Below are positions 48,101 through 63,775 of a stretch of DNA of 64,000 nt, in pieces; the stretch's first letter is position 1; each line of letters opens with the position of its first letter. The translations under genes and the position numbers were made by a program. The DNA lies in the IMG/VR virus record IMGVR_UViG_3300028920_002946, positions 118,678-182,677 of that record; one strand, written 5' to 3'. The stretch comes from a virus. Under the pieces are notes generated by a model, which worked only from the letters and a program-made list of their open reading frames with translations, made no database searches and was not told the DNA's origin.

Positions 48101-48115
48101 CGGAACGGAGGACAG

Positions 48116-49015
48116 ATGAACCCGACTCTCGTGGCGGACAGCATCAGGGACAGGTTGTCGAAATACGTCGCCGACCACAACCTCAAGGCTCTGGTGCTCG
48201 GGGTGTCCGGAGGCGTCGACAGCGCCGTCTGCGCCGCCCTCGCCAGGCCGGTGTGCGACCTCCACGGGATCGATCTCGTCGGGCGCAGCATCACCATCGC
48301 CTCGAACAAGCGGGGTGAGATAACACGCGCGCAGTTAGTCGGCGAGGCGTTCTGCACGGACTTCAAGGAGATCGATCTCGGGGACGAGTTCGCGTCGCTT
48401 GTGAAGATCCTCATCGAGGACGACGAGCCGGGCGACCTGACGCACGAGCGGAGGGTGCGCCGCGGCAACCTCAAGGCTCGCCTGCGCATGATCCGGCTCT
48501 ATGATCTGGCCAGCAAACACGGCGGCATGGTGCTCTCCACGGACAACCTCACGGAACTGCTCCTCGGCTTCTGGACCATCTGCGGCGATGTCGGGGACTA
48601 CGGCATGATACAGAAGCTGTGGAAGAGCGAGGTGTACGCCGTCGCGCGCTCTCTGTGCCGCGCATTCGAGGCGGAGAAGAGGTCGGACAGGAGCGAGGCC
48701 CTGCAGGCCTGCATAGCCGCCGTGCCCACGGACGGCCTGGGCGTGACCGACAGCGACCTCGACCAGTTCGGCGCCTCTGACTACGAGGAGGTCGAGCGCA
48801 TCCTCAAGACATGGCTCTGCCAGGACGAGGACGCGTTCGCCTGGGACTCCTGGCTGCGCTACGAGGGGCGCCCGGAGACGTTCAAGGAACTGCTGGAGGA
48901 GCGCGGGCGCATCGCCGACCACCCCGTGGTGTGTAGGCACGTCGCAACGGCCTACAAGCGCGACATACCCATCAGCATACCGCGGCACGACATAGACGGC
49001 CTTCCCGACGAGTAG
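48116..49015 (+). CDS. nadE: NH3-dependent NAD+ synthetase
   Basis: GVSGGVDSAV, GNLKARLRM, STDNLTE, GDVGD, KSEVY, PTDGL. Confidence 0.92.
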   Translation: MNPTLVADSIRDRLSKYVADHNLKALVLGVSGGVDSAVCAALARPVCDLHGIDLVGRSITIASNKRGEITRAQLVGEAFCTDFKEIDLGDEFASLVKILIEDDEPGDLTHERRVRRGNLKARLRMIRLYDLASKHGGMVLSTDNLTELLLGFWTICGDVGDYGMIQKLWKSEVYAVARSLCRAFEAEKRSDRSEALQACIAAVPTDGLGVTDSDLDQFGASDYEEVERILKTWLCQDEDAFAWDSWLRYEGRPETFKELLEERGRIADHPVVCRHVATAYKRDIPISIPRHDIDGLPDE

Positions 49016-49036
49016 CGCCAGGGGCCTTGGCGCCGC

Positions 49037-49049
49037 TAATCTATTAATA
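49037..49049 (+). promoter_or_regulatory. Putative late promoter motif TAATCTATTAATA
   Basis: Variant of the 34374 motif. Confidence 0.5.
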
Positions 49050-49058
49050 CCCGCTCAC

Positions 49059-49556
49059 ATGGGTATGATGGACGTCACCTCCATGCTCGACAGGGTAGCC
49101 GACAGGCTCGAGGCCGCCGGAAGGTTCCGCGAGGCCGAGGATGTCGATGTGCTGTCCAACACGATCGAGGCCGCGGGGTGGCGGCCGCTGCCGACGAGGA
49201 ACGTGGGCGGCGTCCCGCTCACCGAGCGGAAGATCGGCGACCCCAAGGGCATCAAGGAGAGGGGGGACAAACCCTCGAGATTCGATGTGGCGAAGGAGAT
49301 GGTGGACAGGCACATCGACGAGCGCAACGTCGCCATAGGGGCCGTCAAGGCGGGCATGGAGAGGTACGGGAGGATACTCGACGAAATCGCCAGGGAACAC
49401 CCGGATGTCGCCCCGAAGGCGCGCGAGTACAAGAAAAGGGTGAGCGACATGGCCGTTTCGGTCGAAAGGCAGCTGAAGGACTTCCTGCTCTATTTGATGC
49501 AGGTCAAGGGGGGCCCCGAGGTCACCGAATCCATGGTGGATTACCAAAGCAGTTGA
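49059..49556 (+). CDS. Hypothetical protein with conserved N-terminal helix motif
   Basis: LDRVADRLEAAGRFREAEDVD aligns with the N-terminus of 56363-56872. Confidence 0.6.
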   Translation: MGMMDVTSMLDRVADRLEAAGRFREAEDVDVLSNTIEAAGWRPLPTRNVGGVPLTERKIGDPKGIKERGDKPSRFDVAKEMVDRHIDERNVAIGAVKAGMERYGRILDEIAREHPDVAPKAREYKKRVSDMAVSVERQLKDFLLYLMQVKGGPEVTESMVDYQSS

Positions 49557-49581
49557 CACGGGGGCCTCTCCGTGCTATATT
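49553..49581 (+). promoter_or_regulatory. Promoter of tRNA cluster 1 (TTGACA-17-TATATT)
   Basis: Perfect -35, 17-nt spacer. Confidence 0.85.
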
Positions 49582-49600
49582 TGGTGCTTGGAGGAGAACC

Positions 49601-49660
49601 ATGACAAACGCCATGCTCAGGATAGTCGGAGAAGGTAGGGAGGGGAGAGGGCCGTCCTGA
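49601..49660 (+). CDS. Attenuator leader peptide 1 MTNAMLRIVGEGREGRGPS
   Basis: GGAGGAG RBS; codons AGG ATA GGA GAA GGT GAG GGG AGA match the downstream tRNAs. Confidence 0.85.
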   Translation: MTNAMLRIVGEGREGRGPS

Positions 49661-49684
49661 CGGGGCGTTTTGCGTTTGAACACC

Positions 49685-49720
49685 AACCCCCGTCAGGCCA
49701 GCCTGGCGGGGGTTTCTTTT
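49685..49720 (+). terminator. Intrinsic terminator (attenuator 1)
   Basis: AACCCCCGTCAGG/CCTGGCGGGGGTT plus U-tract; 5' arm alternatively pairs with 49656-49665. Confidence 0.85.
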
Positions 49721-49762
49721 TCTGTTCTTTGACAGTCTGCGGGTGCTAACAAGAACATCCAA

Positions 49763-49838
49763 GGCCCTATCGTCTAGTGGACCAGGACGGGTGGTTCTCA
49801 GCCATCAAACCGGGGTTCAATTCCCCGTAGGGCTACCA
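49763..49838 (+). tRNA. tRNA-Glu(CTC)
   Basis: Cloverleaf, loop TT-CTC-AG, CCA end. Confidence 0.92.
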
Positions 49839-49957
49839 TATAGCAAGCTTGTCGCGAGAGGACTCCGCGCGGGGTCTCCGCCCCCAAGGCCTGGCCCGGG
49901 CCGGCAGGGCGGGAGTAGCGGCGGCAGGGCGCTTTCACTACGGATCGGAGGAGGCCG

Positions 49958-50638
49958 ATGGATACTGCAATCGTGGAAATCAGGGCCGCCGAGGGCGGCG
50001 ACGACGCAAAGCTCCTCGTCGAGGAGCAACTGAAGATTTACGGCAAGGCGTGCATGCTGCATGGGCTATGACTGGCCATCCTGGAGATGCGGCCGGGATA
50101 CGTCTGCATCAAGGTGTCGGGACCCGGGGCCGGAAAACTCTTCGGGCCGGAGGGGGGCGGCCACAGGTGGCAGAGGGTGCCGCCGACGGAGAGGCGCGGC
50201 CGCGTCCAGACATCAACCGTCACGGTAGCGGTTCTTCGGGAGATCCCCGATCTGTCGCTCGACATCCCCGACGAGGACATTGAGATCACGACAGCCCGGG
50301 GATCCGGCAGGGGCGGCCAGCACCGCAACGTCACGGACTCCGCCGTGCAGATCAAACACGTCCCCACGGGCGTTATCGTGAGGTGCGAGTCGGAGCGCAG
50401 CCAGCACCGCAACATGGAACAGGCCATGGGTGTGCTGAAGCAGCGCATCCACCATCTGAGGGCCTCCTCGGTTTCAGAGGGGCGCAACAGCAGGCGCCGG
50501 CAGCAGGTGGGGAGCGGCATGCGCGGCGACAAGGTCAGGACCGTTCGCGTGAGGGACGGCAGGGTCGTCAACCATCTCAACGGCGGGCGCACGACGTACA
50601 AGCGGTATTCGCAGGGGCATATCGAGGATTTGTGGTAG
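49958..50638 (+). CDS. Class I peptide release factor-like protein (PPT, GGQ; no domain 1) with in-frame TGA at codon 38
   Basis: GGAGGAGG RBS; IVEIRAAEGGDDA...GL*LAIL...GGHRWQRVPPTE..GRVQTS..GGQHRN; TGA at 50069-50071. Confidence 0.8.
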
Positions 50639-50644
50639 CGACAC

Positions 50645-50720
50645 GGCCCGGTCGTCTAGTGGTTAGGACATTGGGTTTTCATCCCAAAGATCGCGAGTTC
50701 GATTCTCGTCCGGGCTACCA
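50645..50720 (+). tRNA. tRNA-Glu(TTC)
   Basis: Cloverleaf, loop TT-TTC-AT, CCA. Confidence 0.92.
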
Positions 50721-50756
50721 CCCACTCCGGGGGGCGCTATTGAAAAAGGTATTAAC

Positions 50757-50785
50757 TTTACAACAGCGCCCCTCGGGAGTATATT
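50757..50785 (+). promoter_or_regulatory. Internal promoter TTTACA-17-TATATT
   Basis: Immediately before tRNA(CAT). Confidence 0.6.
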
Positions 50786-50796
50786 GATGGGTTACA

Positions 50797-50873
50797 GGGC
50801 CCATAACTCAGTCGGTCAGAGTAGCGGACTCATAATCCGTCTGTCCAAGGTTCGAGCCCTTGTGGGCCCACCA
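50797..50873 (+). tRNA. tRNA(CAT), probably Ile2 (lysidine) rather than Met
   Basis: Ile2-like body GGGCCCA/CTCATAA; leader 1 contains the ATA codon. Confidence 0.85.
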
Positions 50874-50894
50874 CCCATCACAAGGAGCCCCCAA

Positions 50895-51170
50895 ATGATC
50901 ATCACGGCGAATTACGCCCCAGGGCAGCGTGTCTCGATAGTCGATGCCGAACTCACGGCGAGGGTCATGGGGGTGCTGTTCACCGACCGCGGCGTGTCGT
51001 ACATATGCCGATGGTATGACGGCCAGGAATTCCAAGAGAACGAGTTCGGTGACTCAGAGCTGTCCTCGACGGGAACACAGAACAGGGTGGCGGCGATATG
51101 CGGGGCGAGCGATGAAAAAGGCGACAAGGGAATTGCCGAAAAGGTTGCCGAGGCTAACCGCCGGAACTGA
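50895..51170 (+). CDS. Small hypothetical protein
   Basis: AGGAG RBS. Confidence 0.55.
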   Translation: MIITANYAPGQRVSIVDAELTARVMGVLFTDRGVSYICRWYDGQEFQENEFGDSELSSTGTQNRVAAICGASDEKGDKGIAEKVAEANRRN

Positions 51171-51600
51171 CATCAAGGCCTACCTCAAGGAGAAGCGCCG
51201 CTGTGAGTGCGCGCTTCTCAAGGCCATGCGCGAGGCCCACGCCGACCTCAAGGAACTCCTCAAAAAGATGGAGTCCCATTGGGAGTACGAGGATCTCGTC
51301 TACCGGTTCTACCACCACAGCTACAAGGCGCAGTTCGCCGCCGACCTCGGCAACGAGGTGTTCGACAGGCTCCTGTCTTTGGTGCCGTGGGGACACCGTG
51401 AATGCCCCGTGTTCGTACGCAGGCTGCGAGCGCGGTGCCGGCGGCCGTGGACCATGAGAAGGTCGAGGGCCGACATCGAACTGATGCTCCACGCGCGCTA
51501 CTTCCTGGAGATGGCCGTGAGGTACGGCAGGAGATACAAGCGGGGGCCGAATCCCATGCCGAGCGGGTATGCGGCCCTGATGTGCCTGTACGGATTATGA
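51112..51600 (+). CDS. Hypothetical protein
   Basis: ORF between tRNAs; HARYFLEMAVRYG. Confidence 0.55.
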   Translation: MKKATRELPKRLPRLTAGTDIKAYLKEKRRCECALLKAMREAHADLKELLKKMESHWEYEDLVYRFYHHSYKAQFAADLGNEVFDRLLSLVPWGHRECPVFVRRLRARCRRPWTMRRSRADIELMLHARYFLEMAVRYGRRYKRGPNPMPSGYAALMCLYGL

Positions 51601-51604
51601 TAAC

Positions 51605-51680
51605 GCCCCCGTAGCTCAGACGAATAGAGCCTCGGACTTCTAATCCGATTGCCCGGGTTTGAGTCCCGGCGGGGGTTCCA
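51605..51680 (+). tRNA. tRNA-Arg(TCT)
   Basis: Loop CT-TCT-AA, CCA; T-loop TTTGAGT variant. Confidence 0.88.
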
Positions 51681-51681
51681 C

Positions 51682-51756
51682 GCGGACGTAGCTCAATGGT
51701 AGAGCTCGACCCTTCCAAGGTCGCTGTTGTCGGTTCGAGTCCGATCGTCCGCTCCA
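51682..51756 (+). tRNA. tRNA-Gly(TCC)
   Basis: Loop CT-TCC-AA, U73, CCA. Confidence 0.92.
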
Positions 51757-51775
51757 ATTTGTCAAGCGGGATCAG

Positions 51776-52393
51776 ATGAGAAAATTTCGGGATCTATGGA
51801 AACCCTACATCAACCGGCAGAAGTGCTCGGAGTGCCAGCTTGTGACGGCGCTCAACGCGTACACCTATCTGCACGGCAGGCCATATTGCGAACAGGATTC
51901 GGACGAGTACGAGCGCCTTGTCGATATGGTGGGTGCCAGGCACGGGTCGGCGATACACATCGAGAGGGCGTGGAAGCTGTTGGGGATATGGCCCGTCGCC
52001 AGATATATCTCCTTCGATGATGTTCTGTCGCACAGCCCGAGCCACATTTACATGAAGAGGCTACCGCACGACAGGAACTCGAATTGGTCGAAGAGGGTGA
52101 CATGGGTCAAGCGCAACGGGACGATCCAGCGCCAGTCGAAGTCGAAGGCCGTGCTGCCGGCCGAGGTGACGATATGGCATCCGACGGTCGGCTACCACTC
52201 ATGTCTAATTATCGACCGCAACGAGGCCCTCGACATGGTGAGGGTGTCCAACTTCAAGCACGACACGCATTGGTCGGGCTGGATGTTCGTTTCGGAGCTC
52301 AAATGTCTCGAGAGCCGGGTCACGAGCGGGAAGGACGGCTTGAACAGCGATGGTCAGCAGTGGCTGTACAGGGTTTTCGGAACGCGGGAGTAA
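51776..52393 (+). CDS. Papain-fold (C39-like) peptidase candidate
   Basis: Q..SECQLVTALNA, YHSCL, VSNF; stop lies inside tRNA-Gly(CCC). Confidence 0.5.
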   Translation: MRKFRDLWKPYINRQKCSECQLVTALNAYTYLHGRPYCEQDSDEYERLVDMVGARHGSAIHIERAWKLLGIWPVARYISFDDVLSHSPSHIYMKRLPHDRNSNWSKRVTWVKRNGTIQRQSKSKAVLPAEVTIWHPTVGYHSCLIIDRNEALDMVRVSNFKHDTHWSGWMFVSELKCLESRVTSGKDGLNSDGQQWLYRVFGTRE

Positions 52394-52458
52394 CTCAGTG
52401 GCGGAGTCTCTGCTTCCCAAGCAGATGGTCGCGGGTTCGAACCCCGCCTCCCGCTCCA
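52384..52458 (+). tRNA. tRNA-Gly(CCC)
   Basis: Loop TT-CCC-AA, U73, CCA. Confidence 0.92.
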
Positions 52459-52473
52459 CCGTAAGGAAGTTTT

Positions 52474-52812
52474 ATGGCCTTAGACTACATCTTCGATGAG
52501 GATGCAGTTCTCAAGGAAGCGGGCGAGTGGCCCGAGATACATTGTAGTGCCGAGGTGTTTTGCAACAGGTGTCGGGTCAAGCACACTACACTCAAATTCA
52601 CCATGAGCCATCCAGATTACAAGCTACCCAAGGACGTTGTAGGTTGCTTCTATGGGCATGATATGCGCGCCTGTATGTGGTACAACGGAAGAATCGAAAA
52701 GGGGTGGTACAGGAGTAGCGACGTTATCTGCTGCCCCCAATGCGCCCCTAAAGAGAAACGTCATGAAAGATGGAGCTTGTTCTGGTGGAATTTCTGGGGT
52801 CGGTTTTTCTGA
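52474..52812 (+). CDS. Cys-rich hypothetical protein (lower GC)
   Basis: Flanked by duplicated CTCCCGCTCCA (52448, 52850). Confidence 0.55.
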   Translation: MALDYIFDEDAVLKEAGEWPEIHCSAEVFCNRCRVKHTTLKFTMSHPDYKLPKDVVGCFYGHDMRACMWYNGRIEKGWYRSSDVICCPQCAPKEKRHERWSLFWWNFWGRFF

Positions 52813-52865
52813 AGAGGAAGGCTTCACACGAAAGCTGAACAGTCCCCCTCTCCCGCTCCATATAT

Positions 52866-52941
52866 GCGGCAGTAGCTCATCCGGTAGAGCACCTGCTTGC
52901 CATGCAGGAGGTGGTCGGTTCGAGGCCGGCCTGCCGCACCA
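52866..52941 (+). tRNA. tRNA-Gly(GCC)
   Basis: Loop TT-GCC-AT, CCA. Confidence 0.9.
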
Positions 52942-52991
52942 GATTAATCCAGGACGCCCGACATATTATATTGGTGTATGGAAGCCGTAAA

Positions 52992-53106
52992 ACCCATGGG
53001 GCCGGAGGCAAGACAACCGACCGCGCGGCGGCGCCGACGGGGGACAACTTCCCCGGCCTCACGAAGCCGGGCGCCCTTGAGGTTAGAGTCGCCTTTCCCC
53101 ATGGGT
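52992..53106 (+). ncRNA. Unidentified structured RNA candidate (~115 nt)
   Basis: 10-bp terminal stem ACCCATGGGG/CCCCATGGGT, extended bulged helix, two apical hairpins; TTAATC-17-TATATT promoter at 52944-52972. Confidence 0.5.
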
Positions 53107-53120
53107 CCCGGCATATGTAA

Positions 53121-53197
53121 GCCCCTGTAGCTCAGCAGGATAGAGCACGAGTTTCCTAAACTCGGTGTCCCGCGTTCGAGTCGCGGCAGGGGTGCCA
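53121..53197 (+). tRNA. tRNA-Arg(CCT)
   Basis: Loop TT-CCT-AA, CCA. Confidence 0.92.
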
Positions 53198-53204
53198 AAT
53201 ACAG

Positions 53205-53783
53205 ATGGAGGATGTCATGAGGGCAACGCCCAAGAAGTCCGCATCGAAGGCCCCGCGCCCGAGGCGCAATAGCACCCGCAAGGCTGCCGCCAAGCCCAAG
53301 CCGAAAAAGAAGAATACCCCGCCCGACGAGGAGGGGTTCCTCCATGACCGCCTCCTGACGGTCGAATCGGCCCTCAAGAACTTGACCAAGCACGTCCGCC
53401 ACATCGAGAAGGCCCTCGATGACGCCGAGGGAAGGGGCCGGGAAAAAGCCGCCTGGGAGGGTTTCGGCGAGGGCATGAGCGCCCTGTCGGGCCTCATCAC
53501 CGACATCCGAACCATCGAGACCAACATCCGCGATATAGTGGCGCAGAATCCGACCGACCGCCTCGAAAACGCGCTCGGCCGCGCCGTCATGCTGTCGCTG
53601 CTGTGGTTCAGGGAGGGCGACCGCGAACCTCTGCAGATACACAGGATCCTCGTTGCGAAGGTGCTGGACATCTTGAAGGAGTGGGCCTCCAAGAAGGATG
53701 TCAAAACCTTCGAGGGCAGCATGGACCAAGCCCTCGCCAGGAGCGTGTACGACGCCCTCGGCGGCCATTCGATTCTCGACTGA
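53205..53783 (+). CDS. Hypothetical protein with basic N-terminal tail
   Basis: GGAGG RBS suggests start near 53217. Confidence 0.6.
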   Translation: MEDVMRATPKKSASKAPRPRRNSTRKAAAKPKPKKKNTPPDEEGFLHDRLLTVESALKNLTKHVRHIEKALDDAEGRGREKAAWEGFGEGMSALSGLITDIRTIETNIRDIVAQNPTDRLENALGRAVMLSLLWFREGDREPLQIHRILVAKVLDILKEWASKKDVKTFEGSMDQALARSVYDALGGHSILD

Positions 53784-53829
53784 CAACCAAACGAGGCGGC
53801 GCCGCCGCCGCAGAAGAAAGGCGTTCAAA

Positions 53830-54348
53830 ATGGCAATGACCGTACCGGACGACGTCGTGCCGATCATCACGCCGGCGATACGGAATCGTATCGCGCAGCT
53901 ACTCGAGGAGGCCTTCAAGCTCGCCTCGCTGGCAGACTGCTCGGATGTCCTCGAGGGAAGCATCGACAAGCTGACGGCGAAGTACTTCCAGGAGGGCGGG
54001 TCGCCGAGAGATCTCGATGACATGCCGGACAACTCCGACCCGCCGTCGATGTCGATCCTCACAACCGATCTTCCGTCGCCCCGGTCCCTCCTCGAGTCCG
54101 GCGGCCAATCCCGGGCGGTTGGCAGGAACGTCAAAAAGACCCGGGGGATCCCCGTCAGCGAGTTGGTTGAGGCCGACAACTATACGGCGCGCGGAAACCC
54201 CGTGTCCAGGTACAAGGGTGTGTCGTACAGCGGCATGGTGCGCAGGCCGTGGGTGGCCAGGTACAAGGGGAGGCGCCTGGGCTGCTACAAGGATGAGGTT
54301 TCCGCCGCGCAGGCATACGAGCGCGCGCGGTCGAGGAAAAGGGGTTGA
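53830..54348 (+). CDS. Protein with C-terminal AP2-like DNA-binding domain
   Basis: SRYKGVS...WVARY..RRLGCYKDEVSAAQAYE. Confidence 0.7.
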   Translation: MAMTVPDDVVPIITPAIRNRIAQLLEEAFKLASLADCSDVLEGSIDKLTAKYFQEGGSPRDLDDMPDNSDPPSMSILTTDLPSPRSLLESGGQSRAVGRNVKKTRGIPVSELVEADNYTARGNPVSRYKGVSYSGMVRRPWVARYKGRRLGCYKDEVSAAQAYERARSRKRG

Positions 54349-54373
54349 CATCGACCCGCAACGGCGGTATATT
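54345..54373 (+). promoter_or_regulatory. Promoter of tRNA cluster 2 (TTGACA-17-TATATT)
   Basis: Perfect -35, 17-nt spacer. Confidence 0.85.
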
Positions 54374-54427
54374 TGATGGATGTCTGCGCCGGGCGTGCCG
54401 CGGCGCAAACCAGCAGGGAGATTCGGA

Positions 54428-54496
54428 ATGTCTGTGACGGTCCTCAAACGAGTCGTTGTCAAGCGTCGGGTATCGACGCCAAGGGGGGCCGTGTAG
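54428..54496 (+). CDS. Attenuator leader peptide 2 MSVTVLKRVVVKRRVSTPRGAV
   Basis: GGGAG RBS; own translation; GTG GTC AAA CGA GTT AAG CGT CGG GTA match the downstream tRNAs. Confidence 0.85.
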   Translation: MSVTVLKRVVVKRRVSTPRGAV

Positions 54497-54527
54497 CCTA
54501 GTTTCCGTCTCACGCGATGAATACACG

Positions 54528-54561
54528 ACCCCCGGGCGAGCAGCCTGGGGGTTTTCTTTTT
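54528..54561 (+). terminator. Intrinsic terminator (attenuator 2)
   Basis: ACCCCCGGGC/GCCTGGGGGT plus TTTCTTTTT; 54522-54533 alternatively pairs with 54484-54495. Confidence 0.85.
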
Positions 54562-54637
54562 GGGTCCGTAGCTCAGTTGGTAGAGCTTGCGCCTTTTAAG
54601 CGTAAGGTCCCGGGTTCGAAACCCGGCGGGCCCACCA
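54562..54637 (+). tRNA. tRNA-Lys(TTT)
   Basis: Loop CT-TTT-AA, CCA. Confidence 0.92.
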
Positions 54638-54670
54638 GAGGGGACTTGCTATTCTATGCATATCCTTTTC

Positions 54671-54745
54671 GGGCGTGTAGCTCAGTCGGTGCAGAGCGCG
54701 TGTTTTACAGGCACGAGGTCGAGCGTTCGAGTCGCTCCGCGCCCA
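54671..54745 (+). tRNA. tRNA-Val(TAC), CCA not encoded
   Basis: Loop TT-TAC-AG. Confidence 0.85.
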
Positions 54746-54762
54746 CGGAAAGGGATGGTGCC

Positions 54763-55173
54763 ATGGGAAACGAGGAAATCGACGGCTTCAGCACGGAGAT
54801 GATAAGAGAACTCAGGAACGACTTTACATTCTTCATCGCCATGTCCATGCTGAAAATAATGGCGTCATCAACGCCGGACGCCAAGAAGTTCATTCGCGAG
54901 GTGGTCTGGAAATGGCGTGAAAAACAGGTGCAGGCACTGCACATAGTGGCGAGCGAGATGGACAAGAGGATGTTTGAGGACAAGGAGTTCTCCGAATTGT
55001 TCGGCCCCGTCATGAGGCAAGTGAACAAGACGCAGCGCGGGGTGATGATAGACTGCATACGCAAATTCTGCGACACCATGGAGGAAGCCCTCGTCGCGTC
55101 CATGTCGTCCGAAACGGACGGAGGCGACGGGGATCCCTTGAATGAAGAAGGCGAAGGCAACGTGCCCTCATAG
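54763..55173 (+). CDS. Hypothetical protein
   Basis: Stop lies inside tRNA-Lys(CTT). Confidence 0.55.
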   Translation: MGNEEIDGFSTEMIRELRNDFTFFIAMSMLKIMASSTPDAKKFIREVVWKWREKQVQALHIVASEMDKRMFEDKEFSELFGPVMRQVNKTQRGVMIDCIRKFCDTMEEALVASMSSETDGGDGDPLNEEGEGNVPS

Positions 55174-55239
55174 CTCAGCTGGTAGAGCAGCGGACTCTTA
55201 ATCCGCGAGTCCCAGGTTCGAACCCTGGTGGGGGTACCA
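55164..55239 (+). tRNA. tRNA-Lys(CTT)
   Basis: Loop CT-CTT-AA, CCA. Confidence 0.92.
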
Positions 55240-55256
55240 ATTTTTCAGGGCGGCAA

Positions 55257-55333
55257 GCCCCCGTAGCTCAGCGGATGAGAGCACCACGCTCCGGACGTGG
55301 GGGTCGCGCGTTCGAGTCGCGCCGGGGGTACCA
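55257..55333 (+). tRNA. tRNA-Arg(CCG)
   Basis: Loop CT-CCG-GA, CCA. Confidence 0.92.
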
Positions 55334-55347
55334 GCCAAGGGGTGGGC

Positions 55348-55854
55348 ATGGAAGGCGGATGGTTCGTCAAGCTTCTGCTTCTCACCGTCCAGAGGACGTG
55401 GGCCCTTCTGACGGGCGGGGTGGAGTCCCTGTTCTACCTGAAGCATTGGTCGAGGGGCCACAGGATCATCGCGAATGCGCGCGACCTGATAAGGGACACC
55501 GCCGAACTCGAGAGGTTCTACAAAGAGATGCACGTGGTCGAATACCGGCGGGATTGGCTTGACAGATGGTCGTTCCCGTGGGTCACGGCCGTCAAACGGA
55601 AGGGCGACTGCGAGGATTTCATGACGCTGTCGTACGCGATAATGAAGGAGAAGGCGAAGTGCGTGAGGACAGCCCTGTACGGTAGGAGGGACGGCAAGAG
55701 AGGCGGCCACGCCGTGCTGATCGTCCGCGAGTCCGGCGGGTGGGTCTTGATGAGCAACATGCACCGGTATATATGGTTCGACAATCCGCATGACGCGGCA
55801 CGGAAGCATTACGGAAAGGACACGACCAGGTACTACTTCCTGGACAGGACATAA
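55348..55854 (+). CDS. Transglutaminase-like cysteine peptidase
   Basis: KGDCEDF and GHAVL motifs. Confidence 0.7.
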   Translation: MEGGWFVKLLLLTVQRTWALLTGGVESLFYLKHWSRGHRIIANARDLIRDTAELERFYKEMHVVEYRRDWLDRWSFPWVTAVKRKGDCEDFMTLSYAIMKEKAKCVRTALYGRRDGKRGGHAVLIVRESGGWVLMSNMHRYIWFDNPHDAARKHYGKDTTRYYFLDRT

Positions 55855-55861
55855 AACATAC

Positions 55862-55938
55862 GCCCCCGTAGCTCAACTGGATAGAGCGTGCGGCTACGGA
55901 CCGCAAGGTTCCGGGTTCGACCCCTGGCGGGGGTGCCA
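55862..55938 (+). tRNA. tRNA-Arg(ACG)
   Basis: Loop CT-ACG-GA, CCA. Confidence 0.92.
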
Positions 55939-55944
55939 TCTTCA

Positions 55945-56021
55945 GGGCGGTTAGCTCAGCTGGTTAGAGTACGTGGTCGACATCCACGAGGTCGGGAGTT
56001 CGAATCTCCCACCGCCCACCA
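55945..56021 (+). tRNA. tRNA-Val(GAC) with C33
   Basis: Loop TC-GAC-AT, CCA. Confidence 0.85.
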
Positions 56022-56050
56022 TAGACATTCAGGCTGCTTGATGGTATATT
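56022..56050 (+). promoter_or_regulatory. Promoter TAGACA-17-TATATT
   Basis: Directly after tRNA-Val(GAC). Confidence 0.6.
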
Positions 56051-56058
56051 ACGGGCGT

Positions 56059-56298
56059 ATGAAACCTGAAACCGCCGACACACCGACGAAACCTGAAGCG
56101 GTTAACTACGTGGTCGTGTCATGTTGCGCCTGCAACAAGGTCATGTCGGACGACCGACAATGGTTCGACGGCACCGACCTATTGGCCGTCGTGCCCAAGC
56201 ACTTGGTGAGCCATTCCATCTGCCCTGAGTGCTTCGCCGCGCACTACCCTGAAATGCACGCCCGGTTCTCCAAACAGGGTAAAATACAGGCCGGCTGA
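56059..56298 (+). CDS. Small zinc-binding protein
   Basis: CCACNK...W...SHSICPEC. Confidence 0.6.
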   Translation: MKPETADTPTKPEAVNYVVVSCCACNKVMSDDRQWFDGTDLLAVVPKHLVSHSICPECFAAHYPEMHARFSKQGKIQAG

Positions 56299-56362
56299 CT
56301 CCCTAATAATGCTTTAATCGCCACACCTGCTGTACGGACATCAGCAATCAAGGGGATGCCAC

Positions 56363-56872
56363 ATGCAGGCCAGGACTGCCGCTGCCGTTGTGCGCGCAAT
56401 GGACTCGATAGCCTCATCACTCGAGAAAAAGGGACTCCTCAGGGAAGCCGAGGAACTCGATGCGGCGACCAACGCCGTCCAGCGACACGCGACCGACCCA
56501 AGCCAGAACTCGTTCACTTACGACACGTTGCAGCAATATCCCGACTTGATGAAGGCGATCCCTGGTGAGATTCTGTCGGTCATGAAGGCAATGAAAGATT
56601 CAAGCCTATGGTGGCGCGATGACGGTGCCTCCGTTACATTCGACCAATACACATTGGATTCCTCACAGATCAAGACGCTTGCAGCCGCCGGATCCCTCGT
56701 CAAGATATTTCCGGAAGAACACGATAAGTACGGGGATGGGTATCCCGTGCACGACGGATACACAGCGGAATTCAATGTCAAAAGAACGCCACAATTTGAA
56801 CAAGCAGGCACCGCCGCGCTCCAAGATCTCCTCAGGAAAAAGGAATACAAGGAGTTCGACCCGGCCATATAG
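56363..56872 (+). CDS. Hypothetical protein with conserved N-terminal helix motif
   Basis: MDSIASSLEKKGLLREAEELD shared with 49059-49556. Confidence 0.6.
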   Translation: MQARTAAAVVRAMDSIASSLEKKGLLREAEELDAATNAVQRHATDPSQNSFTYDTLQQYPDLMKAIPGEILSVMKAMKDSSLWWRDDGASVTFDQYTLDSSQIKTLAAAGSLVKIFPEEHDKYGDGYPVHDGYTAEFNVKRTPQFEQAGTAALQDLLRKKEYKEFDPAI

Positions 56873-56881
56873 GTGACAGCA

Positions 56882-57229
56882 ATGGACGATGCCAATAAAG
56901 TAGTGCAAGCATACCTCGCCGGGAAGTCAAAGGAAGCGATGGACTTCTCGTCCATCGCGCCGCTGCTCAAGTCCGAGAAGAAAATGGACGACCGCGAGAT
57001 AGCGCGCGCCCTACGGCTCGCCATAGCCGCGGAACACGACGCGGCCCACCTGTACGAACTCATCGCGGACAGTTGCGAGAACAAGGTTGTCCGCGAACTG
57101 CTTCAGGACATCGCCAACGAGGAAAAGGTCCATGTCGGGGAGCTCCAATGGCTCCTCTCCCACATCGACAGGGACAACGGAAGGCTTCTCCAAGAGGGCG
57201 TGGAGGAGGCGCAGGAAATAGCAGAGTAG
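56882..57229 (+). CDS. Ferritin-like/rubrerythrin-type di-iron protein
   Basis: AIAAEHDAAHLYE and DIANEEKVHVGE ExxH motifs. Confidence 0.8.
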   Translation: MDDANKVVQAYLAGKSKEAMDFSSIAPLLKSEKKMDDREIARALRLAIAAEHDAAHLYELIADSCENKVVRELLQDIANEEKVHVGELQWLLSHIDRDNGRLLQEGVEEAQEIAE

Positions 57230-57288
57230 CACATCCCACATCCAGCATCGACACGATCAATAACGACAACGGCAAACAGGGGAGAGCA

Positions 57289-57543
57289 ATGATGAGGGTC
57301 GTCATTGCCTTGGTTGCGCTCGTGTTCTTTTCATGCGCGCCGAGGTTCACGGTCTACCTCCACAGGGAGGACAAGATGAACACGGACGGCATCGTCGTCC
57401 TGTCCATCGACACGCTTGAGGGGGTGCACAAAGGCAAGAGGGTGGTGTACGTCATTAGAAGGGATCTCGGCAGCATCGGGAGCGCGGTCTACGGCGCGAG
57501 GCAGAGAAAAATACAGCCAGAGGTTGACAGTCTCTCGAGATGA
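57289..57543 (+). CDS. Small lipoprotein candidate
   Basis: Signal peptide ending FFSC. Confidence 0.5.
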   Translation: MMRVVIALVALVFFSCAPRFTVYLHREDKMNTDGIVVLSIDTLEGVHKGKRVVYVIRRDLGSIGSAVYGARQRKIQPEVDSLSR

Positions 57544-57552
57544 GGGTATATT
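57524..57552 (+). promoter_or_regulatory. Promoter of tRNA cluster 3 (TTGACA-17-TATATT)
   Basis: Perfect -35, 17-nt spacer. Confidence 0.85.
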
Positions 57553-57574
57553 TGGTTGCACAAGGAGTGATGTA

Positions 57575-57655
57575 ATGGTCTACACGGCGAACAACCCAAA
57601 CCCCGTCCAGCAACCGCGGAACCGCGTTCCGTCGGGGTTGGTGGTATTGCCGTAA
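57575..57655 (+). CDS. Attenuator leader peptide 3 MVYTANNPNPVQQPRNRVPSGLVVLP
   Basis: AAGGAG RBS; AAC CCA CCC CAG CAA CCG match the downstream tRNAs. Confidence 0.85.
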   Translation: MVYTANNPNPVQQPRNRVPSGLVVLP

Positions 57656-57675
57656 GATCAGGCACCAAAAATACC

Positions 57676-57715
57676 AAAGCCCCGGCGGACGAAAGTTCTC
57701 CGGGGCTTTTTCGTT
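57676..57715 (+). terminator. Intrinsic terminator (attenuator 3)
   Basis: AAAGCCCCGG/CCGGGGCTTT with GAAA apex plus U-tract; 57670-57684 alternatively pairs with 57633-57648. Confidence 0.85.
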
Positions 57716-57735
57716 TGGTTCACCTAGGAAAAGAG

Positions 57736-58140
57736 ATGAACACGAAGGATATAGGCGAACGATCCGAGGCACAAGTATTGGCCACCCTCTTAAAAGGGGG
57801 TAAGACAGTACTGAAACCATTCGGAGATAACCAAAGGTACGACCTCGTGGTCGACGAGGATGGAGAATTCCTGAGAGTTCAGTGTAAGACAGGAGTATTG
57901 AAAAAGGGATCAATATACTTCCCGACTTGCAGTAGTTACGGACACCGAGGAAGAGGGAAGAAAGGCTATAAGAGAGAAGCAGACATCTTTGCCGTCTATT
58001 GTCCTGCTACTGACAAGGTCTACATTATCCCTGTCGAAGAAGCACCCGAAAGGCAGTGTTACCTACGGGTAGAGAAAACGAAGAACTCTCAAGACAAAAG
58101 AATTCGATGGGCCGAGAAATACGAATACACGGGTGCGTAG
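57736..58140 (+). CDS. PD-(D/E)XK endonuclease, I-Ssp6803I-like homing endonuclease family
   Basis: GERSE..PFGDNQRYDLV..RVQCKT..DIFAVY; lower GC; stop inside tRNA-Asn. Confidence 0.75.
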   Translation: MNTKDIGERSEAQVLATLLKGGKTVLKPFGDNQRYDLVVDEDGEFLRVQCKTGVLKKGSIYFPTCSSYGHRGRGKKGYKREADIFAVYCPATDKVYIIPVEEAPERQCYLRVEKTKNSQDKRIRWAEKYEYTGA

Positions 58141-58205
58141 CTCAATGGTAGAGCAAGTGGCTGTTAACCACTGGGTTGGGGGTTCAAGTCCCTCCGTGCC
58201 CGCCA
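58131..58205 (+). tRNA. tRNA-Asn(GTT)
   Basis: Loop CT-GTT-AA, G73, CCA. Confidence 0.92.
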
Positions 58206-58230
58206 AATTCAGACCGGTCGCAAATGGCTC

Positions 58231-58704
58231 ATGAATGGCTCAAACGGCTCATGTTATGAGAGATTGACCGGTGAGAAGTTCGTGACGACCGCAATCTACC
58301 CGAACAGGGAGAGGGACAGGCGCGAACTGGAGCGGCTGTCCGACCTCAAGGAGGGCGGCGACGCCTCGATGCTCTTTCACAGCAGGAACGGTACGCTTCT
58401 GGCCCGGGGGTACGCCCGGGTGGTGTACGGAGACCACGGCCCCTACGTCGAGATGTTCAGGGATCAGGTGGAGTGGGCGGCGTGGGAACTCGAACGGTCG
58501 GACATCGGATACTACAACAAGTGGTGGACGAAGGACGGGACCCGCGTCATGCTGTACGAACAGAGGAAGACGGTTGCCGACCTGCCCAACCCGCCCGCCG
58601 GCAAGCGGTCGCACAGGGGGAACAGGAAGGAAGGATACGCTGACTACCGGATAGGAAGACTGTATTTGGATCCTTACGAGGTGGTCATGAAACACGGAGT
58701 GTAG
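58231..58704 (+). CDS. Hypothetical protein
   Basis: VYGDHGPYVE; stop inside tRNA-Pro(TGG). Confidence 0.55.
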   Translation: MNGSNGSCYERLTGEKFVTTAIYPNRERDRRELERLSDLKEGGDASMLFHSRNGTLLARGYARVVYGDHGPYVEMFRDQVEWAAWELERSDIGYYNKWWTKDGTRVMLYEQRKTVADLPNPPAGKRSHRGNRKEGYADYRIGRLYLDPYEVVMKHGV

Positions 58705-58772
58705 CGAAGCCTGGTTATCGCACAAGCTTTGGGAGCTTGGGATCGTCCGTTCAAATCGGACCGCTCCGACCA
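58695..58772 (+). tRNA. tRNA-Pro(TGG)
   Basis: C1, loop TT-TGG-GA, A73, CCA. Confidence 0.9.
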
Positions 58773-58779
58773 GATTTGA

Positions 58780-58855
58780 TGGGGCGTGGCTCAGTTGGTA
58801 GAGCGGCTGACTCTGGATCAGCAGGTCGGAGGTTCGAGCCCTCCCGTCCCAGCCA
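58780..58855 (+). tRNA. tRNA-Gln(CTG)
   Basis: U1-A72, loop CT-CTG-GA, G73, CCA. Confidence 0.92.
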
Positions 58856-58934
58856 GTTTCACCCCCCGGGGTGCGGCCTGTAGCGGGCCGCGCGGCCACA
58901 CGGCGGAAATCAGGCTCCGCCACGGGAGACCAAT

Positions 58935-59009
58935 TGGGGTGTAGCTCAGTGGTAGAGCGGCGGCCTTTGGAGCCGCGCGTCGGGCGTTCGAACCGCCCCA
59001 CCCCAGCCA
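58935..59009 (+). tRNA. tRNA-Gln(TTG)
   Basis: U1-A72, loop CT-TTG-GA, G73, CCA. Confidence 0.92.
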
Positions 59010-59020
59010 TGGAGGAAGTA

Positions 59021-59278
59021 GTGTCAAAGAAAATAGGCAAGGACTCAACGATTGAAGAGGCGATAGCCTATGCCTTTGATCTTGACGGTAGGATGAAGTG
59101 CACGGACTTCAACGGTGTCGCCCACATCATCCATCTGGACGGGTCGACGTTCACGATCAAAAACGCGATCATCAAGAGGTACGGGAGGTTCGTGGTTGTC
59201 TATGCGGAGCACCAGCACCCGATGGTGTGGTTCAAAGACGACCTGTACCGATTCGGATTGACGAAGTACGGAGTGTAG
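59021..59278 (+). CDS. Small hypothetical protein
   Basis: GGAGG RBS + GTG; stop inside tRNA-Pro(CGG). Confidence 0.55.
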   Translation: MSKKIGKDSTIEEAIAYAFDLDGRMKCTDFNGVAHIIHLDGSTFTIKNAIIKRYGRFVVVYAEHQHPMVWFKDDLYRFGLTKYGV

Positions 59279-59345
59279 CTCAGTCTGGTGGAGCGCTGCG
59301 TTCGGGACGCAGAGGTCGCCGGTTCAAATCCGGCCACTCCGACCA
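59269..59345 (+). tRNA. tRNA-Pro(CGG)
   Basis: Loop TT-CGG-GA, CCA. Confidence 0.92.
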
Positions 59346-59373
59346 ATCTTTCACCTGTTTACGATCTTGCGAA

Positions 59374-59450
59374 CGGGAAAGCCCAGTCTGGTCAGAGCAC
59401 TACGTTTAAGGCGTAGGGGGTCGTCAGTTCGAATCTGGCCTACCCGACCA
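59374..59450 (+). pseudogene. Degenerate tRNA, Pro-like body with TAA at the anticodon position
   Basis: Good anticodon and T arms and ACCA end; broken acceptor stem and positions 8-9. Confidence 0.55.
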
Positions 59451-59490
59451 ACTCATGTTGTCCTTTGACAACACTTTCTGTTCAAACAAC

Positions 59491-59519
59491 TTGTAATAAG
59501 TTCCGTTAGGGACTATATT
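59491..59519 (+). promoter_or_regulatory. Promoter TTGTAA-17-TATATT heading the low-GC islet
   Basis: Motif match. Confidence 0.55.
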
Positions 59520-59581
59520 AAGTGGGTAATGATGCGATGCTTATGCACTTCATTCTGTACAAATACTCAAAGGAGAGGGTC

Positions 59582-60145
59582 ATGCATTACCCAACTGTTT
59601 TTGCTGTGTTCTTTCTGCTGCTGGTTGCATGCAATAACAACGATGTGGTGCTCCCGGAAAACTGCACTGAACCAAACGTTGTCGCAGCCTTAGGAACAGG
59701 GTGTAATTCAAGTGCTTCGGAGCTCACGCTTGATTTGGTAGATTCAGCAGAATACTGTGACGCTGAACGTTTGAGATGGACATACGACCAAAACACGTGC
59801 GTGTTACGCTTAGTACACAGCCGCAGCATTCTCAACTGTGCCACCAAGCTTGATGTACGTGCGCGAATTAACAGAGACACAATATTCGTCACCGAATACG
59901 ATGTCCGTTTAGATGATTTACCAAATATTGTAGCCGCTTGTTGTCTGTGCCCGTTTGATACCTACGTAGAAGTGGCAGATGCCCCGTCAGAGGAAATAAT
60001 AGTCGTCCTCTACAGACAACTTTGTATTGGTGCTGGGGAATATAGGGATACCCTCGTGACGCGCACACCACTCGACATTGACACCTCCCCGTCACCATTC
60101 TGTAATGGCTATGTTATACTACAATTAAGGGAAGCGGATGGGTAG
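59582..60145 (+). CDS. Cys-rich lipoprotein (low GC)
   Basis: Lipobox LLVAC. Confidence 0.65.
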   Translation: MHYPTVFAVFFLLLVACNNNDVVLPENCTEPNVVAALGTGCNSSASELTLDLVDSAEYCDAERLRWTYDQNTCVLRLVHSRSILNCATKLDVRARINRDTIFVTEYDVRLDDLPNIVAACCLCPFDTYVEVADAPSEEIIVVLYRQLCIGAGEYRDTLVTRTPLDIDTSPSPFCNGYVILQLREADG

Positions 60146-60232
60146 CAGTTGGCAGATATGATCAAGGAATCTCAAAGCGTAAGGCAAATGGTAACGGAAA
60201 ATCATCGAGATTCTTGAAGAAAGAAGATAAAG

Positions 60233-60667
60233 ATGCCTTGTGCGACACATCTACAGATGGTAGATGAAAACTCGTGTTCATACACGAGCACAATTTATGA
60301 CCTCAAGCACTACATAGAAACTGTCGGTTTCAAGGTGGACCTTCATGCAGCCATTGGGTGTAGGTCTAAACCGTTTGACAGTACTTCTAAAAAGTATGTC
60401 AGTGGAAGGACCTATTACGATCACGATGAGCCATTCCAACGTTTGGTACAAATAGACGAGCCCTGCGTTATATGCGCTGTTATGACGATTGCGCATGAAG
60501 GGGGACACGCACTCCATTATGTGCAAAGCAACAAAGAAAACCAACCTCCTTGTGAGGAAAGAGAACGTAGAGCGTACAGATTGGGGTGGAAGATACTTAA
60601 GGCACTCTCAGTAAGTTTCATTACGAGAGAAATGTGGAAGGAACACCACGAATTGTTAGTCGGGTAG
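60233..60667 (+). CDS. HExxH metallopeptidase-like protein (ImmA/IrrE-like)
   Basis: TIAHEGGH...EERRA; low GC. Confidence 0.55.
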   Translation: MPCATHLQMVDENSCSYTSTIYDLKHYIETVGFKVDLHAAIGCRSKPFDSTSKKYVSGRTYYDHDEPFQRLVQIDEPCVICAVMTIAHEGGHALHYVQSNKENQPPCEERERRAYRLGWKILKALSVSFITREMWKEHHELLVG

Positions 60668-60740
60668 TAGCTTAGCTTGGTAGAGCATTTGACTTTGGGA
60701 GCCAGAGATTTCGTCCGTTCAAATCCGGCCACTCCGACCA
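60661..60740 (+). pseudogene. Degenerate/chimeric tRNA-Pro(TGG)
   Basis: TTTGGGA loop; mismatched stems; last 25 nt identical to the tRNA-Pro(CGG) 3' end. Confidence 0.55.
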
Positions 60741-60745
60741 AATTT

Positions 60746-60822
60746 CGGGGCGTAGCGCAGCCTGGTAGCGCACGTGAATGGGGTTCACGTGGTCGCTGGT
60801 TCAAATCCAGTCGCCCCGACCA
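60746..60822 (+). tRNA. tRNA-Pro(GGG)
   Basis: Loop AT-GGG-GT, A73, CCA. Confidence 0.9.
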
Positions 60823-60840
60823 ATTCACCGGAGGCATGAG

Positions 60841-61107
60841 ATGGTCTGGTACGTCTACATGCTCAGGTGCTCCAAGGGCGCCCTCTACACGGGCATCACG
60901 ACCAACGTCGAGGTGCGCCTCCAGACCCACAACTCGGGGCGCGGCTCGAAGGCCCTCAAAGCCCTCGGCCTGCCCGCGCGTCTCGCCTATTTGGAGAAAC
61001 GACCTTCCAAGTCGGACGCACTCAAACGCGAGGCGGCCTTGAAAAAGTTACCGAAATCGGAAAAGGAGACCCTCTCCGCCAATTTCCGAAGGTCCGCTTC
61101 GTTTTGA
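60841..61107 (+). CDS. GIY-YIG nuclease (YhbQ/UPF0213-like)
   Basis: WYVYMLRC..LYTGITT..RL..HN.G.G..ALKREAALKKL. Confidence 0.9.
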   Translation: MVWYVYMLRCSKGALYTGITTNVEVRLQTHNSGRGSKALKALGLPARLAYLEKRPSKSDALKREAALKKLPKSEKETLSANFRRSASF

Positions 61108-61108
61108 A

Positions 61109-61121
61109 TAATCTCTGCATA
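61109..61121 (+). promoter_or_regulatory. Putative late promoter motif TAATCTCTGCATA
   Basis: Variant of the 34374 motif. Confidence 0.4.
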
Positions 61122-61152
61122 CACAGCCCCCAATGTAAGTTATCGCGAGGGG

Positions 61153-61503
61153 TTGGATAAGGTGAAATACTACATGCCTGTCTTGTTCTTCGTCGCCGTG
61201 GGGTTGTGGCTGTCCTGCGGCTCGTCCATCAAGAGTAGCGTAAACATACAGAAATCAATCATCCCCGCCGCCGAGGCGGCGATGTACACCCCGAGCCGGG
61301 AACCCGAACCCCGAATCGAACCCTCCGTGTTTACCGACACCGGCGGCATCTCAATCAACCGCAGGGAGAAACGCGCACCCCATGCCGGACTCCCGCCGAA
61401 ACCCCTGATCGAGTGCCGCAGCATCCTCGACACCGTCTCCGTCCTCAACAGGGCCTCCTATGTCCTGATAAAGGAGACGAAAGAGGAACTTTCGGAGCCG
61501 TAA
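61153..61503 (+). CDS. Lipoprotein candidate
   Basis: Hydrophobic signal ending WLSC. Confidence 0.5.
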   Translation: MDKVKYYMPVLFFVAVGLWLSCGSSIKSSVNIQKSIIPAAEAAMYTPSREPEPRIEPSVFTDTGGISINRREKRAPHAGLPPKPLIECRSILDTVSVLNRASYVLIKETKEELSEP

Positions 61504-61563
61504 GTTTACGGCATCGGTTCTCCCAAAGTATATTATGATGTCACCCCTCCAAGGGATTCCGTC

Positions 61564-62187
61564 ATGGACTTGAAGGAAGCCTCCCTGGTTATGTGCCACC
61601 TTCTCATGCACGAGAAGGATGTCAAGGACGCACGCGAGGCCGCCGAAAAAGACTCGCCGGACAGCACCTTGGATCCCGACACCGAGGCCGAATTCGAGGA
61701 GAGGCTGCGCGAGGCCACAGCGGGCATCGCCGAATTCGGAAACCGCCTCGCCGCCATCCCCGCCTTTTTCGATGTCATGGAGTCGTGGCTCGTCACGGTC
61801 GTCGGCAGGCAGGGCGTGTCCGAGGAAACCATGAACGAGGCCGTGGAAACCAACGATCGGGACACCATGATAGAGCGCACCGGCGCCTTGGCCGCGTCCG
61901 TCCGCGACTATCTCAGATCCCAGGGATTCATCATACGAGACATGGGGGCTGGCGAGGACGGGTGGGACATGTGCGTCAGATGCGCCGAGAAGAAGTCCCG
62001 CACCCTCTGCTTCGACCTTCACCAACGGTTCGCGGACGCCATCAGGTTGAAGCTGATGCACGTTTCAAGGAGATTCGGCGGCCACTATCTGCCGGGCATC
62101 TACACATGGCGCGACGCCCAAAGGCTCCTCAAGGGGTTCGGCGACGGCCGCAACGGTCAGGAGGAAGCGGATGATCGAGGATCGTGA
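61564..62187 (+). CDS. Hypothetical protein
   Basis: TATATT promoter at 61529. Confidence 0.6.
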   Translation: MDLKEASLVMCHLLMHEKDVKDAREAAEKDSPDSTLDPDTEAEFEERLREATAGIAEFGNRLAAIPAFFDVMESWLVTVVGRQGVSEETMNEAVETNDRDTMIERTGALAASVRDYLRSQGFIIRDMGAGEDGWDMCVRCAEKKSRTLCFDLHQRFADAIRLKLMHVSRRFGGHYLPGIYTWRDAQRLLKGFGDGRNGQEEADDRGS

Positions 62188-62386
62188 CCTGGACATAATA
62201 TCGACCATGTCGGACATCATATCGGCGGTGACTGACGCCGCCCGGGAGGGGGTCGTCGACCGAGTCGTCGCCACCCAGCATGTGTCGATGTACTTGAAGG
62301 AAGCGGCGAAGTGCATTGATCGGGGGGCGGCCGGCGGCGAGAAAACTCGCAAGGGGGTGCCGGATGGATCAGACTCCGCAGGATGA
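62171..62386 (+). CDS. Small hypothetical protein
   Basis: GGAGG RBS. Confidence 0.45.
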   Translation: MIEDRDLDIISTMSDIISAVTDAAREGVVDRVVATQHVSMYLKEAAKCIDRGAAGGEKTRKGVPDGSDSAG

Positions 62387-62783
62387 GGGTGCGACTCTTG
62401 AGGAGGAGGCGCTGGAGCACGCGCTGACCACGTCGAGCTTCCTCATGTGCATGGCGTTTATAGAGAAGATAGTTCGGGGCGAACGGCCGAAGGATCCAAC
62501 GAAGAGGACCTTGAAGATATGGCTGCCAGAGGGCAAAACATCGCTCGGGATGAAGATAGCCGAGAACAACGAGGAGGCGCTCCTCTTGGTGAGGGATTCG
62601 GACGAGGCGGGCGAACTCGGCGGGAGGAAGAACAGAGTGCACGCGGCAGACTCGGAGGGGTTGAAGAACAGGAAATGCCTCGTCGCCATCGTGGACGACG
62701 CCAGCCAGATAACCGAAACGAGGATGGCGAAGATTATGAAGGCTCTCGAGTCGTGCCAGCCCGTGTACATCCTCATAGGGTGA
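62364..62783 (+). CDS. Hypothetical protein with degenerate P-loop-like features
   Basis: PEGKTS and AIVDDA. Confidence 0.45.
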   Translation: MDQTPQDEGATLEEEALEHALTTSSFLMCMAFIEKIVRGERPKDPTKRTLKIWLPEGKTSLGMKIAENNEEALLLVRDSDEAGELGGRKNRVHAADSEGLKNRKCLVAIVDDASQITETRMAKIMKALESCQPVYILIG

Positions 62784-63004: not shown

Positions 63005-63107
63005 CGTAAGTGTCCGGGTTCACGTAAGTACGGGTGTTCAAGCCCCCCTGATTTCCTTGGTGCGTTGCCGTGCGTCAGCCGTTCAACAACAAACCAAGGA
63101 GACAAGG

Positions 63108-63636: not shown

Positions 63637-63644
63637 CACGGTGT

Positions 63645-63720: not shown

Positions 63721-63775
63721 TTCATTCTATCGAAGGGAAACGGACATGTTATAGCACCCAACAAGGAGGCATGAC

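Follow-up and report, generated by a model that had tools for sequence, protein, structure and literature searches.

Why phages carry tRNA genes is a long-open question, and a 2026 review still describes the role of tRNAs in large phages as unknown (PMC13359090). The question is raised here by three tRNA gene clusters in a 64,000-nucleotide stretch of viral DNA (the window; positions 118,678 to 182,677 of IMG/VR record IMGVR_UViG_3300028920_002946), each of which lies behind a promoter, a short open reading frame (ORF) and a terminator hairpin. The record, from a jumbo phage, has 182,677 bases with 62% GC and is estimated to be 39% complete; the window is its final 64 kb and holds all 22 of its tRNA genes (49763-63720). 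Its major capsid protein shares 93% identity with the one encoded by a 467-kb IMG/VR genome (G001), 48% with that of Tunturiibacter phage Tunturi_5 and 39% with that of Bacillus phage G. A capsid search across bacterial genomes gave no match, hence no host was assigned. A sequence-only reading had proposed that the short ORFs are leader peptides controlling the clusters by attenuation. The comparisons below make it highly probable that each unit is a ribosome-mediated transcription attenuator of a phage tRNA block, exerting negative feedback on tRNA supply.

The units have the common architecture described in that reading: promoter, leader of 19-26 codons, alternative hairpins, terminator and tRNA block. 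Their elements are as follows, in window coordinates.

49553..49581, + strand: unit 1 promoter, TTGACA-17-TATATT, with the same hexamers in G001
49601..49660, + strand: leader 1, 19 codons, with orthologues in G001 and G004
49619-49651, + strand: leader 1 control codons, Arg(AGR), Ile(ATA), Gly and Glu
49654..49669, + strand: unit 1 segment 2 (antiterminator arm), spanning the stop codon
49685..49723, + strand: unit 1 intrinsic terminator with U-tract, hairpin 49685-49714
49763..53197, + strand: tRNA block 1 with interspersed ORFs; Glu(CUC), Glu(UUC), CAU (probably Ile2), Arg(UCU), Gly(UCC), Gly(CCC), Gly(GCC), Arg(CCU)
54345..54373, + strand: unit 2 promoter, TTGACA-17-TATATT, from the promoter scan
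54428..54496, + strand: leader 2, 22 codons, with an alternative in-frame start at 54380, near the likely transcription start
54434-54472, + strand: leader 2 control codons, Val, Lys and Arg(CGN)
54477..54494, + strand: unit 2 segment 2 (antiterminator arm)
54527..54562, + strand: unit 2 intrinsic terminator with U-tract, hairpin 54527-54553
54562..56021, + strand: tRNA block 2; Lys(UUU), Val(UAC), Lys(CUU), Arg(CCG), Arg(ACG), Val(GAC)
57524..57552, + strand: unit 3 promoter, TTGACA-17-TATATT, from the promoter scan
57575..57655, + strand: leader 3, 26 codons
57590-57622, + strand: leader 3 control codons, Asn, Pro and Gln
57625..57646, + strand: unit 3 segment 2 (antiterminator arm)
57676..57717, + strand: unit 3 intrinsic terminator with U-tract, hairpin 57676-57709
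58131..60822, + strand: tRNA block 3; Asn(GUU), Pro(UGG), Gln(CUG), Gln(UUG), Pro(CGG), Pro(GGG)

The scan showed that these are, as claimed earlier, the only perfect TTGACA-17-TATATT promoters in the window; three more such sites lie in the remainder of the 182.7-kb record. The ribosome-binding sites had all been called strong, which holds for leaders 1 and 3, whereas that of leader 2 is only moderate. Some relatives have near-leaderless starts of the leader ORFs. The terminators, each with its U-tract, have folding energies of about -23 to -26 kcal/mol. All three tRNA blocks agree with the sequence-only list.

The leaders are written in codons read by the tRNAs of their own blocks. Recounting reproduced both the cognate-codon cover of the blocks (8/8, 6/6 and 6/6 intact tRNAs) and the share of control codons read by the same cluster (10/11, 11/13 and 9/11), provided that the CAU tRNA at 50797 is Ile2 reading ATA. 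The acceptor stem of this tRNA has C4:G69 and C5:G68, which we take to be an Ile2 determinant. Exact-anticodon cover is 7/8, 6/6 and 6/6 for leaders 1, 2 and 3, with chance values of 3e-4, 8e-5 and 2e-4 under genome codon usage. Block 1 reads 10/18 codons of leader 1, compared with 1/18 for block 2 and 2/18 for block 3; leader 2 is read at 12/21 codons by its own block vs. 2/21 and 1/21 by the others, and leader 3 at 11/25 vs. 1/25 and 7/25. The Arg codons are sorted in the same manner: leader 1, ahead of Arg(UCU) and Arg(CCU), uses AGA/AGG, and the control stretch of leader 2, ahead of Arg(ACG) and Arg(CCG), uses CGN.

Related phages were located through the capsid gene, their tRNAs were mapped and the tRNA regions were scanned for leader-terminator units, which gave 29 units in 11 phages (the 3 window units and 26 further units in 10 related phages). 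Pattern scans with the leader DNA returned only G001, G004 and three chance matches inside coding genes. G001 and G004 share the three window units and carry two further ones, one with Phe/Asp/Met/Ile(GAU)/Ser(GCU) and one with Cys/His/Leu/Tyr/Thr/Ala/Trp/Ser(NGA), and the window's phage probably carries both beyond the contig end. The tRNA grouping differs in G006, G010, G011, G013, G014 and Tunturi_5, and the leaders differ accordingly. The four G011 groups are Pro/Ala/Ile/Glu/Gly/Lys, Ser/Cys/Asn/Leu, Val/Arg/Ile2/Asp/Gln and Trp/Phe/His/Thr/Met/Gly/Leu. There are two large blocks in G013, a single one in G010 and a Met/Gln block in G009, and in each case the leader is in the codons of its block. 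The leader peptide sequences are not conserved between differently grouped phages. G006 also contains two tandem leader-terminator units of the Asn/Pro/Gln type (merged region 50403 and 50969).

In each of the six multi-unit metagenomic genomes, the correct leader-to-block assignment outscored every other permutation. Over the 29 units, whose leader frames have no in-frame stop codons, the in-frame match comprises 477/833 codons and 272/286 tRNA species, whereas the two other frames match 215/833 and 218/833 codons and reach 164 and 149 species (227 expected). When synonymous codons were redrawn with the peptides fixed, exact cover was 176/238 against a null of 157 (P 3.5e-4) and wobble cover 226/238 against 200 (0/20,000); thus, the match exceeds what the amino-acid content gives. 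The 40-codon leader of G001 unit 5 has an exact codon for 20/20 block anticodons, compared with a null mean of 12.2 (0/200,000). Within the split codon boxes (AGR/CGN, AGY/TCN, ATA/ATY, TTR/CTN), 57/66 codons agree with the isoacceptor encoded downstream. Covariation of leader codons with downstream anticodons in relatives, proposed beforehand as a check, was therefore observed even where the tRNA sets are regrouped.

The RNA pairings, given here as predicted folds only, adopt the classical 1:2, 2:3, 3:4 layout in all three window units. Segment 2, located at the stop codon or slightly 5′ of it, pairs either with the 5′ arm of the terminator (-24 to -32 kcal/mol) or with the 5′ part of the leader. 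Terminator arms pair with their own leader at a mean of -21.2 kcal/mol vs. -13.9 kcal/mol for non-cognate leaders (0/100,000 permutations, P<1e-5), and between orthologous units the two arms have changed in pairs, terminator and antiterminator together. In a rough ribosome-masking model, the antiterminator is available with the ribosome on the control codons and reduced farther along. Matched codons make up 65% of the permissive positions, where a stall leaves segment 2 free, vs. 29% of the non-permissive positions (29 units), a contrast that comes partly from the pairing constraints on segment 2.

From the observed anatomy, codon match, covariation and pairing geometry, we infer that the leaders are translated and that the terminators act in vivo. 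Host RNA polymerase would initiate at the sigma70-type promoter, with a ribosome following on the leader. If all control codons are read fast, the ribosome would cover segment 2, the terminator would form and the tRNA block would stay silent. If a cognate charged tRNA is scarce, the ribosome would wait at its codon, and the free segment 2 would pair with the terminator 5′ arm and let transcription continue into the tRNA block. The newly made tRNAs would then relieve the stall and close a negative feedback loop, and a tRNA set would probably be made mainly when its codons are read slowly. The trigger would be a defence nuclease, phage demand or starvation. Because a stall at any control codon opens the whole block, sensing would be per isoacceptor and the response per block; the earlier statement that exactly those tRNA genes are turned on is overstated. 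Most isoacceptors have only 1-2 control codons (477 for 286 species), which suits strong tRNA loss over mild shortage. Thus, the device probably responds more to strong loss, such as anticodon nuclease cleavage, decay during infection or heavy phage demand.

The trpL, hisL, leuL, thrL and ilvL leaders likewise combine a short ORF with control codons, 1:2/2:3/3:4 pairing and an intrinsic terminator, and slow reading at their regulatory codons lets transcription pass the terminator (PMC1183508). Three sequence-testable features of this class are present in the window units, in support of the proposed trp/his/ilv logic: a short ORF with translation start signals between the promoter and the regulated genes, control codons cognate to the product of those genes, and, as predicted folds, a mutually exclusive terminator and antiterminator with a protector, for which the ribosome position is decisive. 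However, the controlled genes are the tRNAs, the sensing molecules themselves, and are phage-encoded, rather than the enzymes or synthetases of the biosynthetic leader families. Each phage leader serves 3 to >20 tRNA species with 1-2 codons each, whereas biosynthetic leaders have runs of one amino acid, and several parallel phage leaders tile the genetic code. No Rfam leader family matched at E<=0.1 in 48000-64000, nor did any T-box or riboswitch. T-box riboswitches are also tRNA-responsive terminator/antiterminator switches with codon specificity, but they recognise uncharged tRNA by direct binding, no translation being involved, and are blind to a tRNA that is missing. The Rfam T-box model, with its Stem I specifier loop and T-box sequence, had no match at the leaders. 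Thus, the units work like the trp/his/ilv leaders but lie outside the biosynthetic leader and T-box families. The Escherichia coli pheMST operon, in which the charged tRNA level governs Phe-tRNA synthetase, is similarly a translation component under leader-peptide attenuation, but it is chromosomal, senses one amino acid and controls a synthetase, not tRNA genes.

The closest functional parallel is the Anabaena trn operon (L-array), a mobile tRNA array that is normally silent and induced under translational stress (PMC8421152, PMC10272220). However, it is controlled by the TrcR protein repressor at the promoter and is not codon-specific, and the word attenuation is absent from PMC8421152. When specific tRNAs are destroyed by defence nucleases, phage-encoded ones can replace them and rescue the infection, as in the T5-like tRNA-rich region against retron-Eco7 PtuAB and with tRNA-Lys against PrrC (PMC11555353). 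The T5-like region has a strong promoter and no described leader or attenuator (PMC11555353); by analogy, such tRNA replacement likely supplies the purpose of the attenuator units. A literature search without most subscription journals turned up no account of tRNA genes under leader-peptide attenuation. The mechanism itself is known from the trp/his/ilv leaders.

Several observations weigh against attenuation by these leaders. In units 1 and 2, the terminator wins over the antiterminator when the full-length RNA is folded at equilibrium; the switch must hence be kinetic, with the outcome decided during transcription, as in known attenuators. For the window units, the rough ribosome model still has a residual arm pairing of 0.5-0.7 when the ribosome is at the stop codon, and the antiterminator is weak in phage G (-12.3 kcal/mol) and in two G011 units. 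Taken singly, the window leaders show no clear synonymous-level selection (P 0.013-0.18). The leaders in relatives were chosen and the CAU tRNAs typed by eye, and the window's phage, G001 and G004 are close relatives and statistically non-independent. Some tRNAs may also have basal expression that bypasses the attenuators, from a further candidate at 59491, 5′ of the last Pro tRNAs, and from the following site.

50757..50785, + strand: internal promoter-like site, TTTACA-17-TATATT, just 5′ of the CAU tRNA

This site may drive attenuator-independent expression of six block 1 tRNAs. It stands as a motif conserved in G001, whereas a second internal promoter reported before at 52944 matches only 3/6 positions at -35 and failed the scan. 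G001 has two more promoter-like sites within its fifth block. These sites, together with the equilibrium preference in units 1 and 2, would fit terminators that only set basal read-through or timing, with most tRNA made from internal promoters or through a phage antiterminator and the leaders fine-tuning at most. We consider this very improbable, since the leaders keep codons for tRNAs behind internal sites across phages whose neighbouring DNA is ~67% identical, and block 2 has no internal promoter-like site before its last tRNA.

With the same mechanics, the signal could instead be amino-acid starvation or general ribosome slowing, the leaders being multivalent amino-acid sensors like ilvL or thrL and the blocks being grouped by amino acid. 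Starvation must indeed also open the switch, because uncharged and missing tRNAs slow the same codons (PMC1183508), and synonymous choice is only weakly significant in the window alone. However, an amino-acid sensor needs neither the division of the Arg, Ser and Ile boxes among leaders by downstream isoacceptor nor a leader with one codon for each of 20 anticodons. No biosynthetic genes were recognised among those block ORFs that were scanned, the downstream genes being tRNA genes and small ORFs, and this signal alone is unlikely. In DNA of 62% GC, short ORFs and hairpins arise often, and the G-rich frames of leader 1 also match partly off frame (7/8 and 6/8), as would be expected of a compositional artefact. 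Such chance, or small peptides acting as proteins, is nevertheless hardly credible, being refuted by the covariation and countered by the frame-specific match, the stop-free frames, the unconserved peptides and the cognate pairing specificity; phage families without the terminators also gave no such units.

The units occur in two cultured phages, in which the attenuator design is bench-testable now. Tunturi_5 has three units whose leaders cover 8/9, 14/15 and 16/16 tRNA species, and the diagonal dominates the leader-block match. Only one of these leaders is annotated, as hypothetical gp308, and the Tunturi_5 paper mentions neither leaders nor attenuation (PMC11924767). The 44-codon ORF gp86 of phage G, which has no assigned function, covers 8/8 tRNAs behind a terminator (Cys/Asp/Phe/Tyr/Glu/Thr/Ser/Trp); no leader was found at the other tRNA cluster of this phage. 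With a release-factor homologue as bait, mostly distant phages were retrieved, including G025 and Mycobacterium phage Tonenili, whose tRNA arrays lack leader-terminator units; thus, the system is not universal. A 485-kb uncultured phage (LR745208.1, 138000-204000) has codon-matched leaders before Glu/Asp, Arg/Gly, Thr, Pro/Ala and Leu groups without intrinsic terminators, and may use a version that depends on Rho or differs in some other way.

In the large-phage lineage of phage G, Tunturi_5 and many uncultured jumbo phages, the attenuators could amount to code-wide tRNA surveillance, an inducible counter-defence that switches on replacement tRNAs, for which we judge the case evenly balanced. 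Parallel leaders with one codon per isoacceptor would detect the loss of any host tRNA, for example by an anticodon nuclease. With an on-demand switch, phage tRNAs would be a conditional translation rescue rather than a constitutive codon-bias fix, and unit read-through would report which tRNAs fail during infection. Attenuation would thereby reach beyond biosynthetic operons, to tRNA genes and into viruses, and the leaders would offer synthetic biology compact multi-codon tRNA sensors.

A release-factor-like gene lies inside block 1.

49958..50638, + strand: release-factor-like gene with RF-1 and PCRF domains and an in-frame TGA at 50069-50071 (codon 38)

At the codon-38 position, the homologues have TAG in G001 and TGA in 20 distant loci, and nine others have a prfB-like Shine-Dalgarno sequence and CTTTGA +1 frameshift site at the same place. 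The gene is probably a second sensor of translation that regulates itself through read-through or frameshifting. RtcB, TilS and a CCA-adding enzyme were not found in the record, which is uninformative given its completeness of only 39%.

Block 3 also has two degenerate Pro-like tRNA copies at 59374-59447 and 60661-60740 (+ strand), the former with a UAA loop and a score just below the Rfam cut-off. An inserted PD-(D/E)XK endonuclease gene (57715-58140, + strand) separates terminator 3 from the first tRNA, and a GIY-YIG nuclease gene (60778-61107, + strand) follows the block; both are probably homing endonucleases. Outside the three units, a suppressor-like tRNA with a UUA anticodon (63645-63720, + strand) follows a hydrolase gene (63262-63636), and in relatives, a similar tRNA after block 3 has a CUA anticodon. 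Immediately 5′ of unit 1, genes for a nicotinamide phosphoribosyltransferase-like protein and an NAD synthetase (46592-49015, + strand) form an NAD-rebuilding pair that could counter NAD-depleting defences.

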